A stretch of 64,000 nt of DNA from Podarcis vaucheri (taxonomy: Eukaryota), in assembly GCA_965113315.1 (NCBI GenBank), contig OZ220364.1. One strand, given 5' to 3'. Below the pieces are notes generated by a model. That model saw only the letters and a program-made list of their open reading frames with translations, was not told the origin of the DNA and searched no databases. The position numbers and the translations under genes are program-made. This document shows positions 30,585 through 46,267 of the stretch, in pieces; the first letter of the stretch is position 1; each line of letters starts with the position of its first letter.

Positions 30585-31496
30585 CAATCCATGACAGATT
30601 TCAGACAAGAAGGACTCTCTCAGTAACGGCACCTGACTCTATAGTTAGTGTTTTGCAAATCACTTATGTGATTTAGTCTCAACACACCCCATTATAATGG
30701 CAGCTAACAAAGCCCAACAGAAGCCCAACAGAAGATTTAGCATAAATATTAAGAGATTGGAAAGGTGAGAATGCTTGCCTTATGTACACCATTAGATTTA
30801 GGAAATACTTAAATGCAGGGTAGGAAAAAGTACAACACTGTCCTTCTGCATCCTAGTGTAATATTAACCCCTACCCCATTTTGCCATCCCAAGATAAGAA
30901 CAAAAAATGTTTCATTCACCCTGAACAGTAATAGATGTCCAGTCCCAGTTCAGAGCTTCAAATTTGGGAATCAGTGAAATTTATACTAATTCAGCATTTC
31001 TGATCGTTAGCACCCTAAGGAAGGACCATTTACCTTTTGCAATTTACAGAGTTTGGTCCAACAGTCTTGATTGTTTTTTTAAAAACATCCTCGGGTTGTT
31101 GCTTTTTTGCAGAAAAACAAGTATATTACATAGTCCTCAAAAGGGGGAAGAGGAGCATATAAGACATTACATTTCAAAATGCGCAGATAAGTTTCTGCAC
31201 AGTTCTTTACAGCAGGAAAGAGCAGAATATCTGTGCCCCATGCTGCTACTTGAACCCCTAACACTCAAAATCCTCATCGTATGCCCACCTCTCCATACAA
31301 AATTCTGGAAGAACATCCAGGTGCACGCAAGCTGAGTAACTTTACATAAAAACAAGGTAGGTATTACTCTGAGTAAAGTTTTGCTGTCTTTGACATACTG
31401 CAGACAGTCCTGCCCTTGGGCTAAGCCACTGCTCTCTACATTTGGAACACTCCACAGTGCAGACAGGTTGTTCATTAAAGTAGGTAGTTTACTTAC

Positions 31497-32522
31497 AGAG
31501 CAAGTAACTTGCAGCTGCTGGTGTTGCTGCTGCTGCTGCTGCCCCTGCTCTTGCGGCGTGGACTGCTGCTGCTGCGGGTCCCATATATGGACCGTCTGGG
31601 CTGTATTCTGATATGTCCCTGCCACTGCTTGCACTGCCACTGGAATGTGGATATTGCCATTCATAAACTGTGCTGGGAAAAGGGAGTTGGCAAGGGTTTG
31701 CACCACTTCCTCATGAGAGTTTTTCACTACTGATGCACCTCCCACCATCTTATCCTTGTCATCTTCCAGCTTCACAGTGGCTAGGGCCGTCGGGGAGCCA
31801 CTGACATGGACGGCATTGTAGGCCTCCTGGGGGATGGCAATGTGGGTTATGTTTTGCTGCTGCAGGTCACCACGTGGCTGCGCAGAGTAAACAGGGATGG
31901 TCCAAGTCTCTCCAGTAGGGCTGGTTATGGTCCCAGTGGCACTGTACAGGTGGGCACTATCCACCGTTAACAAGTCCGGCCTTAACGATACATAACTCTG
32001 CTGCTGGCCTTGGGGGATGGCCAGGACTGTGGCAACCGGCTGCCCTGAAATAGCATAGGACACAGTAATAGGCATATCCACTTTGCGCTTCTTTACTGGC
32101 TGGAGGACACTGGCGGTGCTGATCCTTCGCTCGCCTTCGCGTGGTGAGCCCTGCTGAGATGGAGGAGGGGAAAGCGCCCCAACTGTCTGGATCTGGATCT
32201 GCTGGCCCCCAGCAATAGCCTGTCCTGCCACAAGCTGTGCCTGGATTTGCTGATGCTGCATATGTTCCTCCTGGATTTCGGCACCCTGGATTTGCTGAGC
32301 AGTCTGCACATGCTGCACCTGGATCTGAGCTGCCTGCAACTGAGAAGGGCTAGGACTCTGAAGCGCTTGACCCTGTATCGTCTGAGGTGCCGGCTGTTGC
32401 GCCTGACCTTGGATCTGCACTTGGACCTGTATGGGCTGATCGGAGGCTTGATGAACAGTGAGCTGGGGAGAAAGCTGCTGAGTGGAGACTTGCTGAGGGG
32501 ATTGCTGAACCTGAACTTGCAC
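31497..32522 (-). CDS. QRICH1: QRICH1 large Q-rich exon ([10 protein letters not shown]...QLQVTCS) with KKRK NLS-like motif
   Basis: 1026 nt of ORF 31167..32522; cag| ... TCT|gtaagt. Confidence 0.97.
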
Positions 32523-35500
32523 CTGTAAAACAAGGATTCAAAAGTTAGCATTCCTTAACTCCAAAACCTCTGATCTACTGACTTTTGTGATTAGGCCAAG
32601 GAGAAAGTATAATATAAATGAACTGTCAGTTGGGTATCAGAATGCGGCCATACATAAAAAGTAGTCATTTCTGTACACTTGGGGACCACCCAATATTTCA
32701 AATTAATTTGTAAATTAAGGCAAGAGAGAAAAACTGACAATATCCCAGTGAAGAATGAGCACTCTTAGCCACAGAATGTTGAAGGCAGCTGTACATCAGT
32801 TTTTGACTATGAAAGAATTTAGTGTACTCAAGCTTGTAAACAGCTCACATGCAGCTGGAAAAGGGCTGGTGGCAGCAGAAATTGGGATCAGAGAATGTGC
32901 ATCTGAGGCTAAATAACTCATCTTCCCTGCACTATATGTGGATGTTTGGGAAGAGAAGTTGGGAGAGAATAGGCACTTTTTCATTTTCCCACTCTCCAGA
33001 AAAAGCACTCTGGTTTGAAGCAGGCAGTAAATTTCTAGTGATGCACAGAAGAGCAAGGGATGTTTTCAGAATGATGATAAAAGGAGATTTTTCCCCAACC
33101 TCTCCAACCAGCCACCATCCCAGGAGTCCCGAAAAGCACTATGAATCTTCTATTCTAGGCTGGCTTGAGAGCTGAATAGCACCTTCCCAGGATACCATAA
33201 ACTTATTATTCAGACAACGTTTTCTTATAAGTGTGTGTATGTAGTTAGAACTTCTCAAAAAGGCGTAAGCTTAATAGCGCAACTATAAGAAAATGGAAGG
33301 AATGGATTTCCTACAGAGGCATCTTGCTATACTGGAAGAAAGTGTTTTTGAATGAGTATAATGCAACAAAACTGTAGTAAGAGGTGATAGCTGAAGCACT
33401 CAACAAAACTTAAGAAATTCTTACTTTTTTTAGTAATAGTATCACATATAATACTTAAAAGCCTGCAACAGAGGCAATAATACTTTCCAAACTTCACATT
33501 ATTGTCCTCTTGTTAACACCAAACTAGGGGCAAATTCTTACATGTGTTTCTGGCACTGCATACTCCTATGGGAAATGTAATGGTGCACTTTTGTCTGAAG
33601 TCACAAATCTAACATGGTAACTTTATGTGGAAAACCTGTGAACAAATTGCTCCCCAAATTAAACAGAGGTGTTTCTTGGATGATTTTAACATTTACAGGT
33701 CTTTAATTTACAAACTACTAATTTTTCTGCAAATGTGTTGAGTCCCAAAATATTCTGCAGATACCACCCACAAAAATAACTACGGGTGGAAATACTAGAT
33801 ATAAAAAATTAATATAGTAATGAGAACATGCTATCTATCACTCAAAACTCTTATGCTAATCTTGAAATGCAGAAGAGAGAAACAGTTAAAAGCAGAAAAC
33901 GGAAAGGATAGCTGATTATCCAAAGACCAGCTAAGTTAATGTAGAAATAAGTCAAAGCAAAACCACATTTCTAGATATGATAAAAAATGCTCTCAGTTAT
34001 GAAACTGACGAGAAGCAGCAACAAATTCTGACTTAATCACAGCAGTTTCCAAATTCCATAATAAGACACAAGTGTTGAACTACATTCTATATTGGGATTA
34101 AAGCTGCAGAATTCAAGAGCTCCTTTTTATAAGCAGTAAGCTCTCTCAGTGCCACATGTATCAAACAGTTTACCTTTTTCTGTCCAGCATGTGTTGTCTA
34201 ATTTAAACTTCACTGACCATTTTAAAAGAAGCTACCAAGCACATACTTACATTCCTATCACACACAAGATTTGTGAAGTTCCCCTCACTCACAAAAAGGC
34301 TCCAAATAGTTTTCTATGAAGATTAAAACAATCTGTATGTAGAATATGAACTAATCCCACCTAAACTCTACACAGGCAGTAGAAAGGAATGTGTCTGTAA
34401 TAATCCTGCTGATCAAACCAAAGCATAATCAGACAGACTTCTCTCATGTCCACTGATATAATCAATACAAAAGCATTTGCTGTTAGTTTCCGGCTATACA
34501 TGGAACATAGAACCAAAGTGGTGGTGGTGAAGGAACCTGACAAAAAAGGTCTCCTATTGTTTCAAAGATACTCTCAAAGTGTAAGGCAAAGGGGGTGGAG
34601 TGACAGAAGAACAATCTAAGAATAGTTCACAAATGCATGCTTATCACTCATGGCTGCAGCATCAAATATCAAACAGATTGACTTTTGTGCTAACTCAAAC
34701 AATGTTTTTAGTAAATAATAGTTCAGCTGAAAACCAACAAATTTGAGTAATTAAGCAATGAGAAACCAAGCTACGTATATGCATGTATGAAGCAGGAATA
34801 CTGTGTAGTCAAACTGTTTGGGGGAGCCTATCAAATCAAACAAGTTAAAACTTCCTGAGCTTTATTTTCATAGGTGCTAACTGCTTATCTTGTTCTTAAA
34901 ATTAGACAGCTTCCTGTTAGTTTAATAAATATTTAACGAGGCACCTTCTTACTCCTCCTTAAGACAAAGCTTTGTATTGTTTAAGCTCCTTGGTGCTTGG
35001 GCATAGGCTTCCTTGCTGGCAGCTCCTTATTATCTTACATAGAAGTGTATCTCAGGAAGGTAGTGAAACTGGTTTCTTCTGAAGCTTAGAAAGGACTACC
35101 AGCAAATATCACACTGCAGGCTTGTTTGTTTTTAATGCTGTGCTTCAGGGCAGACTGTGGGATGGGAAACACCTTGACTGCATATACCTTGGATCCCGAA
35201 CGCCACAAACCCAGAAGTGAGTGTTCTGGTTTGCAAACGTTCTTTGGAACCCGAACGTCCGATGGGGCTTCCACAGCTTCTGATTGGCTGCAGGAGCTTC
35301 CTGCAGCCAATCAGAAGCCGTGCTTTGGTTTCCAAACTTTTTGGAAGTTGAATGGACTTCCGGAACTGATTCCATTTGACTTCCAAGGTACGACCATATA
35401 GATGTCATTCAGCAGCTTTAGTGCTCATCTGTGAAAACTTTCTTTCAGGTACCTGACTAGGAATGCCTTACATGCACATGGAGAACAAGTATAGAATCAT

Positions 35501-38410
35501 ATGAACTAAAAAGGAAGACTAGTTTGCTTTAATCCTCTATATGATACACAATTTGTACTTTTGATAAAATTTGGTATCAACTTATAAAATCATTTCGCAC
35601 TAGTATTCCTCAATTCTATTATGCCTTACTGCTAATATGAAAGTGCCCCCCCCAAAAAAAATCTTCAGCAGCCCACAGGTGCTTTTATGAGTTGCAACAG
35701 TTTTCATATTTGAAAAATAAAATGTATTTTATCCAGAGACAAGTTTAAGTGCCAAACCATATATGCAGTTGGACACTCACAGAGCATTTTCTTAGTCACA
35801 TTTAGGTTGGCCCAGAAGGTATAATGGCAAAAATGGTACACAGCACAAATTCAGATCTATTTATCTTTCAAAAAGCAGTCCCATTTTTTAGTCATGCAAA
35901 GGCAACCCAACTCTGAACAAAACAGCTCTGACAATCTTTTTGTGTCTGGAATTGGGTGGGTGTGCTAATTTCCCCAAATGCACATTCCTATATCATCCTC
36001 TCACATCATGGTGATGGTAACTATCTGTCCATAGAACCCCCTTGCCACACAGAGTTGAATCAATTTTTGTTTCATATTTGAGGGCAGAGTAAGAACATTG
36101 TAGTTCAATACTTAAATTAAGTTCAATACTTAATGTGACTACAGTTTTATATGTTTACAAAGAAATGTAATATGCAACTAGCTAATGCAAAATAGCCATG
36201 TAGAGTAGTCAATACATTGCTTATGCATTGCTCACAACGAATGAAATCCACAGTGCTTTCTATTTTGTATTGCATTATACTTCAGTGCTGCTGTTTTTTA
36301 AATGGATTGTATTCTTTCGTTAAAATTTATTTTTAATGGTCTGAAGAGGTTTAGAGCAGCAATATTTGGGATACCTTCAAGATATACAAGGTCCGATGGA
36401 AAAGGTTCGAATAATTAGAGTGTTGTTCAACACCCTCATTATTTCATCTATTAAATATTTCTATATTCTGTGCATCAATAGGGTTTTTTTTAAAAAAAAG
36501 ACTGGCCTAATCCTAAATTTAAGCATTCAGTATACCACAACTGATTCTTACACTGATTCCATCTATATATCAGTGCCAGGACTATCATATGCTAAGTTCA
36601 CTATTATAGATAGATGGTTGAAAGTGCAAATAGCATCTAGGCAAGGCAACATAGTTAGAACTCAAATTTCCAATGGAGACCTACAGCTGAGTGCTTTGCC
36701 TAGGTATTGTTGCATTTAATTAAATGTCAGGGGCACCTAGGTTTGCTGAACAAGTCCTGTTTTTCTAATGTAAATAAAACTCTTTGAAGAAATCCAAATG
36801 AAAGCACTAGCCTGTAACTGTTTACACAGTAGCAAAGAGCCATGTACTTTTGATTCACATTAGGTTTCATAATACAGAGAAATATAGGATTAGTCTACTA
36901 AGCTCTGAAGCATGACTACATTTTCTGCTAGTTTGTTATTGTCTGTACTTCAAGTTAAACACAATATGGCCACAAAACATGTGTTTGCTTCAAGTAGTAT
37001 AATAAAATAAGGTCTAAATTCCTCCATGGGGAAAATTAATAATTCCTAAATCAAGGGTGAACTAAACTGCTCACTGTGTTTCCAATTACTGGGGACTGGC
37101 AGAATCAAATATTAGGAGTCAGTATTACAAATCTAAGGTTAATACGATTCATGTATGTATGCAATTATGATTCCATATCTAAGGTTAATCGTCCCTGTTA
37201 CTCAGATTCATGTATGTATGCAATTATAATTCCATATACAGTAGGAACTGGCAACCATAAGGCCACAAGTAGAATTTGGCCTTGGGTGACAGCCAATTGA
37301 CCCCAGGAGTCCTACTGCCAGTGCTGATGCAGAGTCTTGAAAGAATCTCTCCACAGTCACTATTCAAAATGTAAAGCTCAATGATGGCAGACTCAAAACT
37401 TTTGTGATCAGGTTTATGTTGATTGAATTCAGTTAAGGGTTGAAAGGGAAAGGAAGAAGACAGAGAAGTTATGGACCTGACTGCTAGACAAGCCCTAAAT
37501 GGCTTGGATCCAGGCTATCAGAAGGGCTGTACCTCCTAATATGAGCTTGCCCAGGCTTTGTTATCTTCAGGGGAGGCCCTGCTCTTGGTTCCACCATCAC
37601 AGGTAAATTTAGTGAAGGCACAAGAGAGGGCCTTCTGAGTGGCTGCTCCCAGATTGTAAACTCTCTTCCATGGGAGACAAGGTTGGCCCCCTCTCTGCTT
37701 TCCTTCCACCAGCAGGCAAATGCAAAGTTCCTAAGGAACGCATGACTCAGTTATTAACACTGAATCATATAAGTTACAGTAAGCCATTTGTTTTCCATTA
37801 GGTATTCACCAGAATGATGGGTATTATTGGTTTACATGAAACACTAGACGCAGTCAGGAAGTTTTGTGCAAATGTGCTTTAAAAGTCACTTCTGCAGAAG
37901 AATATGTCTGAAAATTCAAGATACACCAGGCCTCTAGAAATAGGGATACACTGTTTGAAAAAGTGGCATTTGGGAAGTAAAGTTAAAATTGATTTGCCTT
38001 ATTCCTGTGCTCTTTGGACTATACAGTACTCTTAATAATTTATCTTATGGTCATGTTTGCTTTTAAAGAACATTCACAGATATCCAACACTGAGAGGACT
38101 TTCCCCTTCCTCTCCTCTGCAGCCCCACGCATGCCCAACATTTGGACAGCTGAATATCACCCAAGTACTTAACACAGGTACTTTGTGCACTATGCAAAGA
38201 AAAAGCAAAATTAGCAGGGTGGAGAAATTTAAATTAAGTTTCTGATTTGAATTAGATTGGTCCATGTAACAGATATATAGAAAACTAAATAAAATCTTTA
38301 ACCTATCTGAGCGACGAACAAAAAGATTTGTACCTAACAACTACATTCTTTTTCAATTAATTTGTTTTGGAGGAGAGAAAATGCAAGGAGTGTGTCTCTA
38401 CAGTTGTCTA

Positions 38411-38818
<408 letters not shown>

Positions 38819-43624: not shown

Positions 43625-45718
43625 TAATTTACCGGTAGGAAACAACTTTTCTTTTCACAGGTGCTACTGTCACTACCACTGTTTCATAAAACTGAGGCAG
43701 ATTAGTAGTTAAACATTTGAAGCTTTCATTTACCAAATATTTTAGAAGCAGCAAGATCAACTCTGGAGGAAGCTTAAAGTGGTATAGGACAAAAGTTGAC
43801 AAGAATTCTACAATGGAAATTTGTTCACCCCAAGTTGAACCATCACAAGCTATTTTACCTCCTTGGAATCTTCCAGTCTTGAAGCAATCACCTTCCATTA
43901 TATAAGCTACAAGCACCAGTGAATTGCAGGAGATACTCTTCAGCCTAGTGTCACTGTGCCAAGATACCATCCAGAAAAAAGTAATGCATATCAAGTGCGT
44001 TAATGCTTTAGCCAACATCCATAAATATAGAAATGCATTTATGTTAATGATACCATTGCTGCAGAAATCATATATGAATCAAAGATCAGTTGTTTGTTTA
44101 CTGAGCTTTCATCCTTACATGACCTTGGTATAATGTGCATTTCATCAACTTTCAGGAAAAATTGAAATAAATGATATGTAAAACAACAACTCCTGCCTAA
44201 GGAAACAAGTATTCCTTTATCTGCATTTTCATGTAAATATTAAATCTGGAAAGTCAGGCCAAGCCAACTGATTAGCAAGCAGTTAGTTCTCAGAACTTAA
44301 ACATTATTGAAAGCACACACATTTGTAGTATGCAGACAATCTAAACTCACCAGGCACCATGCTGTATGTATTTCTGATATTCGTGTCCTGAACTCTTTTA
44401 GACTCGTGACATTCTGGAGAAGACAGAACAAAGAAACCCTTTCCATCCCCACTTTAATTGTATTTATTTAAGAAATATAAAGGGAGAAGACAATGTTATA
44501 TGACAAAGTTGGTAGAGATGTGAAGGCCCCTCCAAAAAAGTCCAATCCCCCACTTTTCCCCATTTTTTTCACATTTCTAGCTACTTCATTGTTTTAAAAA
44601 GGCAATTCTAGAGCTTTTCTAATTCCAGTGCCTTTTAAGAAAATAAAATTAAAACGCAAACTTTCTGAAACAAGAACTACTCAGTATTCCATGCTGAATT
44701 ATGTGATGTGTATGTGACATGCTCCCTTTACTTATATGAGCTGCCTTGAGCTCTGTGATGGAGGAATAGCAGAATATAAACTAACTTGGTAAAAATGTGT
44801 TAGCATAAAAGCTTGCAGATGGATAAGGTTTCAGAAACCTTGAATGAGGAAGCAAGTGAAAGAACACAGGCATGGCTTCAGTAGATACAGGAAGTTTTGA
44901 ACATCTGTATCGTCTACACCAGGTGTGGGAAACCTCTGGCCCTGCAGATACTGATGAAATTTCCATCATCCCCAAGCAACACAGCCAATGGTTTGGGATG
45001 AAGCAAGTTGTAGTCAAGCAACATCTGCAGGACCGCAGTGTTTCAGAATAATGTAACTTCCAGACCTATCTGGAGATTGTGGGGGGCTGAACCTGCAACC
45101 TCTTGTTTATATGCACCCACCCACTACAGTTGTACTAGTGCTATTATTCAAGTAAGCAGCAAGATTCTCAGTTCCATCTGGGCAAATCTTTTGCCCACCC
45201 TACTGATCAAGACATGTTTGTGACATTAGGCACATGCTAGAATAAAAGTTGATTAGTGCATTTCCATAGTAATGGTAGCATATTGTGCTTTACATTTACA
45301 AATGCTCCAGCCAAGGGTCCGAAAGCCTAGAAGAGCCCTAAGAAAATGCATAGGAACAAAAGGTGGTCTTATCCACAAAAACCTAGGTTTTCAAGTACTA
45401 CAAAACTCTCTCTGGGATGCTAAAGGAATAGTTCACATGACAGACCCACAGGAATTGAAAGCCAGGAAAGGGCCCACGGTAGATTCCTCCACTCATCTCT
45501 TTATCATTAGTAATGATAAATAGGGCAAATAATCCCCCAGTCACTGGTTGCAGGGAAACAGCAGTGTTAAAAGGTATCTATCGGGTTTTAAGGAAAACGA
45601 AATCCGGAGACCGATAATCATACAGCTGAAATCAGCTGAATAGGGAAAGTTACTCAGCTTGTGTATGGGGTGGGGGAAGAGAGAGAGAGAGAATCACTCA
45701 AGTAAGCCTAACTGTCCT

Positions 45719-45949
45719 GTCAGAATAAAAAAATTCCTTCCAGTAGCACCTTAAAGACCAACTAAGTTAGTTCTTGGTATGAGCTTTTGTGTGCATGCAC
45801 ACTTCTTCAGATACTTCTTCGTGTGTATCTGAAGAAGTGTGCATGCACACGAAAGCTCATACCAAGAACTAACTTAGTTGGTCTTTAAGGTGCTACTGGA
45901 AGGAATTTTTTTATTTTGACTATGGCAGACCAACACGGCTACCTATCTG
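45719..45949 (+). mobile_element. Penelope-like element terminal fragment (inverted pLTR pair)
   Basis: ~96-bp inverted arms 45719-45814 / 45825-45920, short unique tail, 16-bp direct repeat TAACTGTCCTGTCAGA (45709-45724, 45950-45965); contains hammerhead motif. Confidence 0.8.
45825..45862 (+). ncRNA. Minimal type I hammerhead ribozyme (Penelope-type)
   Basis: GTAT-CTGAAGA-A-GTGTG/CATG/CACAC-GAA-AGCT-C^ATAC: intact core, stem I GTAT/ATAC, palindromic AGCT in place of stem III. Confidence 0.75.
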
Positions 45950-46267
45950 TAACTGTCCTGTCAGAGGTATTGTACAAGGCTACACTCAACGGTCCACTGT
46001 AATGGACAGCACGAAGCGCTTTTAGGTACAGTATTTGTAAATATTGCAGGCTCCTAGACAAGGCCAGCACACCGAAAAGGCCCCGCCTTGCTCCGCCTCG
46101 CCTCCATTTATTCTAGCCTTCTGGCCAAGGGTGGAGATGAGCATCCTTGGTCGCACGAAACTGGCGCGCGAATGGCTAGGTGAAAAGGAGGAGGAGAAGA
46201 AGCAACGGCGGCGGCCGAAGGGGTTTGGGAAGAGTGAGGAAAATTGGCCACAGCCGTGGCAGCTCAC

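Follow-up and report, generated by a model that had tools for sequence, protein, structure and literature searches.

In Pen2a_Av and EN+ Penelope-like retroelements (PLEs), the accessible parts of two accounts describe an inverted, 5'-truncated pLTR, a tail of 30-40 bp at one end only and a target-site duplication (TSD) (PMC3846280, PMC8557442). In one of them, the formation of such inverted PLE structures is described as undefined, and a CX2-5CxxC linker is given as the mark of Neptune- and Nematis-type EN+ PLEs (PMC8557442). Hammerhead ribozymes of metazoan PLEs have also been surveyed; in the accessible part of that work, opposite-strand hammerhead pairs lie 100-700 bp apart, motifs occur in turtles and snakes, and a minimal hammerhead gave no cleavage as a monomer and weak activity as a dimer (PMC4209133). 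For an Anolis PLE, the corresponding part of a more recent report shows cleavage and extension on both strands and two reverse transcription (RT) start sites in vitro, with a hammerhead that required the element's protein (PMC11167929).

Here, we describe a hammerhead pair of this kind in an intron of QRICH1, within a window of 64,000 nucleotides (the whole stretch of Podarcis vaucheri contig OZ220364.1 that was analyzed). The unit measures 241 bp and is an insertion, in head-to-head format, of a Penelope-like retroelement whose linker is of the Neptune type; the fold-back is real, ordinary, and a further member of an already known element class. Very probably, it is a recent insertion of two ribozyme-end Penelope copies placed head to head, in which the G12>A change of one hammerhead is neutral CpG decay and the ribozyme is predicted not to fold.

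Layout of the insertion and its hammerheads

The features of the locus are listed below in window coordinates.

45709-45712, + strand: target bases matching the element's 3' end (first 4 letters of the 16-nt repeat)
45713..45724, + strand: left copy of the inferred TSD, ~12 bp; present once in empty alleles; family mode 12 bp
45725..45814, - strand: inverted, tail-less, 5'-truncated pLTR arm
45777..45814, - strand: minimal type I hammerhead with G12>A at 45788 (CpG transition), on the QRICH1 strand
45815..45822, no strand: junction filler between the arms; its pattern was found once in the genome, here
45823..45920, + strand: forward 5'-truncated pLTR arm
45825..45862, + strand: intact minimal type I hammerhead, predicted cut after 45858, antisense to QRICH1
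45921..45953, + strand: Penelope 'tail', ~33 nt, on this arm only and common to other copies
45954..45965, + strand: right copy of the TSD

Each inverted arm (45719-45814 and 45825-45920) has 96 nt; a spacer of 10 nt separates the two, and they differ only at 45723 and 45788. A 16-nt direct repeat has its copies at 45709-45724 and 45950-45965. This agrees with the first-pass annotation, which had reported a near-perfect inverted repeat of ~96 bp inside a 16-bp direct repeat. At 45723, the mismatch falls on a base of the target and is no mutation of the arm. Of the 16-nt repeat, probably only the last 12 nt are the true target duplication: TAAC also follows the tail core in other copies (50/68), and among 32 fold-backs the longest flanking repeat measures 12 nt in 14 and 13 nt in 7 (21 in total). 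By match to longer copies, 45823-45824 are upstream bases of the element. The junction filler up to and including these bases (45815-45824) contains short pieces repeated from the adjoining arms, as do several other junctions; from its letters, it looks like templated end joining. The tail begins with an ATG and its frame is open throughout. The element's ORF may begin with this ATG, by analogy with Adineta and Anolis, where the beginning of the ORF overlaps with the pLTR and tail.

The right-arm motif has a hammerhead core, a 5-bp stem II, a palindromic stem III site and a 4-bp stem I, with C17 at 45858, and it is the single match of a generic core-plus-stem scan across the window. The earlier claim of a minimal type I hammerhead is thereby upheld; an additional A, between A9 and G10.1, had been missed. 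The left arm holds the same ribozyme on the minus strand, as had been proposed, and lacks the full catalytic core owing to the change of G12 to A at 45788. Stem II of the right arm (45837-45850) is a perfect 14-nt palindrome. When two monomers are cofolded, they join through the stem II and stem III palindromes, which is a prediction of folding and not of activity. A microRNA precursor was considered and ruled out, since none of the 19 Rfam matches reached the gathering score; these matches were to microRNAs only, were driven by the palindrome and included no hammerhead family.

The QRICH1 coding exons (ORFs 38408-38818 and 31167-32537, whose protein sequence we take to be QRICH1) are on the minus strand. 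The mutated hammerhead is therefore the copy present in the pre-mRNA, as the first-pass annotation had stated. Splice-like motifs read by eye near 45337, 44787 and 46972 agree with the proposed 'intron 1' and with a putative non-coding cassette exon nearby (~350 nt); a literature search for the 5' exon structure of QRICH1 found no description.

The element family and the age of the insertion

The 38-nt hammerhead has 7,715 exact copies in the 1.61-Gb genome and 12,306 copies with at most one mismatch, and the reversed control gave 0. In two longer copies (L046 and L095), the sequence continues from an ORF end through this same pLTR with its hammerhead and tail. A GIY-YIG endonuclease domain (PF01541) lies C-terminally in 3/3 ORFs of longer copies, and a CxxC is found inside the GIY-YIG motif of the linked ones. 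L095 has a CX4CxxC linker before GIY-YIG, from which L046 differs at one cysteine. These linked ORFs, together with the arm layout and the tail, bear out the earlier suggestion of a Penelope-type minimal hammerhead. No RT family match was obtained in the ORFs in hand, all of which are 5'-truncated (207-335 aa); the choice between Neptune and Nematis turns on C-terminal RT motifs and is tentative. A literature search for Penelope or Neptune elements with a hammerhead in lizards or squamates found no description; the search covered papers rather than repeat databases, so this negative does not establish novelty, and the family may already be described.

An inverted partner accompanies 47 of the 80 copies picked by the tail. 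Of 55 fold-backs, 50 bear the tail on one arm, 5 on neither and 0 on both, and a one-arm tail with a target duplication of ~12 bp is typical of the class. The whole hammerhead is absent from 40 of the 80 tail-bearing arms (L152-L231) and is kept in 40 of the 47 inverted partners; therefore, the arms stop at different distances. C17 (hammerhead position 34) is the most frequently changed base in the tail-picked sample (8/80) and is also variable in copies from other samples, which is probably a subfamily difference.

An element of ~2 kb (L056:3897-5870), bounded by terminal inverted repeats and flanked by TA, contains one fold-back that has a 12-bp duplication and, in its tail-less arm, G12A; the ends of this element may resemble those of Tc2-type Tc1/mariner DNA transposons. 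This host element has carried its fold-back to 45 places (L056 and 44 more). Seven look-alike G12A fold-backs were considered as a subfamily, which was ruled out by their shared flanks inside the same host element. A self-propagating palindromic mini-element, either MITE-like or a retrozyme, was rejected because the QRICH1 junction is found once in the genome. The same unique junction rules out a self-copying palindromic subfamily with G12A as the source of the QRICH1 copy.

The insertion is a recent event that took place at this site in the QRICH1 intron. Single contigs bridge the empty site in three other samples, with 37 (X3), 43 (X4) and 41 (X9) letters where the window has 284, and the X4 contig is shorter than the window by exactly 241. 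In X8, two contigs agree with the empty site and neither bridges it. The sequence of the target repeat is present once in empty alleles. X3 bears the same organism label as the sample with the insertion and may be another lineage, because 12 letters differ in ~715.

Mutation spectrum, strand bias and rival readings

G12 and G5 are both essential in hammerhead catalysis. Mutations were counted within a 35-nt pattern, in copies with just one altered position. The altered base is G12 in 737 copies (changed to A in 98 of 100 among the matches listed) and its CpG partner C11.1 in 606 (changed to T in 95 of 100 among the matches listed), whereas G5, a core base outside any CpG, is changed in 45 and a neutral loop G in 60 (p 0.17). 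The two positions of a CpG in the tail are changed in 253 and 275 copies. When 80 hammerheads were chosen without use of the hammerhead sequence, 4 had a change at G12 and 5 at C11.1. Thus, change counts track CpG status (>10-fold) rather than catalytic importance, which supports the CpG decay that had been named as one possible cause. Set against the 7,715 exact copies, the 737 correspond to ~1 copy in 11 with G12>A, the two pattern lengths being slightly different. G12 exceeds C11.1 by 1.22-fold (p 0.0004), and its ratio to C11.1 differs from that of the tail CpG (p 0.039). Part of this excess arises because one G12A fold-back was copied within another repeat; with 44 copies of this re-amplified insertion removed, the excess is 1.14-fold (p 0.017), and sequence context could lie behind the residue.

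Flanking T/A plus G/C skew served as a proxy for the transcribed strand, one that also carries a replication signal. The skew of the QRICH1 sense strand is +0.06 to +0.10. Values from the upstream half of the flanks correlate with those from the downstream half (rho 0.48, n=120). Fetched places comprised 60 for G12 and 60 for C11.1 (each among 100 listed) and 80 tail variants (among 200 listed). They were hand-picked for spread, with non-transitions, most close neighbours and most twice-listed pairs skipped, and all are on contigs C1, C10, C17, C18 and C19. Six duplicates of one event were dropped before the final skew counts, which left 54 G12A loci. These have a mean skew of -0.002 (95% CI -0.019 to +0.015) and do not differ in skew from the 60 C11.1T loci (p 0.71); with the element masked, the mean over all 194 loci is +0.002. 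In simulation, the strongly skewed loci give a power of 82% for an 80:20 bias and 51% for a 70:30 bias. The skew proxy excludes a strong sense bias of G12A and is compatible with a mild one. The expectation that G12A would be commoner in the host-sense orientation thus found no support by this proxy, with 11 of 54 loci above +0.05 and 12 below -0.05.

Equilibrium folding predicts stem II with a probability of 0.89-0.98 for each motif alone, and of ~1e-17 or lower in a transcript spanning both arms, from either strand. The prediction is likewise ~1e-17 or lower for a nascent RNA of the minus strand that ends at the motif. The hairpin of ~96 bp that had been suggested for the pre-mRNA is thus predicted by folding. 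Since the head-to-head geometry has the hammerhead's complement made first, the arms of either strand would pair with each other as a single hairpin and trap the ribozyme, and neither ribozyme is predicted to form whatever base is at G12. With the complement made first and the arms zipped, little activity would therefore be left for selection to remove.

These results bear on several rival readings. Selection may have fixed G12>A in the QRICH1-sense arm, as an intact ribozyme there would cut the pre-mRNA. In its favor, the altered base is catalytic and on the host strand, G12 is in slight genome-wide excess over its CpG partner, and hammerhead retrozymes are under-represented in Xenopus introns according to the accessible part of a preprint (10.64898/2026.07.22.740005). 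However, essential G5 is changed no more than the loop G, G12A copies have no strand bias by the skew proxy, both ribozymes are predicted to be trapped in the hairpin, and so large a fraction of copies has G12>A anyway. In addition, the accessible accounts have the minimal hammerhead inactive as a monomer (PMC4209133) and the Anolis PLE hammerhead dependent on protein (PMC11167929). The earlier proposal that selection disabled the host-sense copy therefore fails on CpG-shaped counts, absent strand bias and predicted trapping of both ribozymes, and we regard it as very unlikely. A related reading is that fold-backs muzzle their own ribozymes and are tolerated in genes either way, and that working solo copies are purged from the sense strand. 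Solo intact-core copies (n=14), one of eight subgroups, do lean antisense (p 0.024 before and 0.026 after masking), a lean that is gone on the downstream flank alone (p 0.15) and on pooling with C11.1T solos (n=42, p 0.78). The residual G12 excess and this small subgroup are weak leads for selection, and muzzled fold-backs with purged solo copies are an unlikely reading. If it were true, thousands of young copies would directly measure selection on intronic ribozyme activity in vertebrates.

Alternatively, G12>A could have arrived with the insertion, through the source copy or an RT error, instead of by later deamination. The insertion is young, its arms are otherwise identical, and copying can spread the change, as in the G12A fold-back present at 45 places. 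Nevertheless, the other arm keeps G12, the QRICH1 junction is unique in the genome, and 0 of 18 head-to-head partners of 60 G12A copies share the change, a count that left out loci with both arms G12A (one such pair is among the matches listed); arrival with the insertion is accordingly a highly improbable account. A further reading has the hairpin co-opted to regulate splicing, editing or small-RNA output of QRICH1, as its predicted perfect stem of ~96 bp ~375 nt upstream of a splice-acceptor-like site might suggest. This is extremely improbable, given that the insertion is absent from three other samples, one of them under the same organism label, that thousands of similar fold-backs exist, and that the microRNA matches in Rfam all fall below the gathering score and reflect the palindrome. 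The reading preferred here remains recent insertion followed by neutral CpG decay.

A proposed route and comparison with known systems

From the anatomy of the locus, a route to the present state can be proposed. The element's GIY-YIG endonuclease would nick both strands ~12 nt apart, and each nicked 3' end would prime reverse transcription on pLTR RNA. One RT start would lie at the far end of the tail, where 4-6 nt of matching target sequence would help, and the other ~33 nt further in. Both cDNAs would stop just past the hammerhead and then join through the 8-nt filler. Afterwards, the C11.1-G12 CpG in one arm would have been methylated and deaminated. Whichever strand is transcribed, its two arms would then close up as one hairpin, and cleavage would be absent. 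The 12-bp duplication around the fold-back and the one-arm tail fit priming from both nicks at two RT start sites. Self-priming on an antisense template is an alternative route described in the accessible part of the Adineta work (PMC3846280).

The QRICH1 locus itself is of little weight, being one of thousands, but the family can serve as a set for testing: combined with gene annotation, it would decide whether hammerheads on the sense strand are selected against in vertebrate genomes.

Compared with what the accessible parts of the published accounts describe, the QRICH1 unit shares with EN+ PLEs and Pen2a_Av its head-to-head arms, one-arm tail, short TSD around the unit and strong 5' truncation. 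It differs from Pen2a_Av in that its arms are trimmed to ~90-100 nt and the ORF is gone, and the TSD mode is 12 bp in the lizard family, in contrast to 8-10 bp in Adineta (PMC3846280, PMC8557442). With Neptune/Nematis EN+ PLEs, the family has in common the CX2-5CxxC linker and the CxxC within GIY-YIG (PMC8557442). With metazoan PLE hammerheads, as far as the accessible survey describes them, the ribozymes share the extra base between 9 and 10.1, the G10.1-C11.1 pair, the palindromic 15.2-16.2 and a short stem I, whereas stem II at QRICH1 has 5 bp and is fully palindromic, and one copy is without G12 (PMC4209133). Poseidon PAc of Anolis carolinensis, in the accessible part of its description, belongs to another clade and its ORF starts inside the hammerhead; its cutting of both strands and its two tail-bounding RT starts fit the one-sided tail seen here (PMC11167929).
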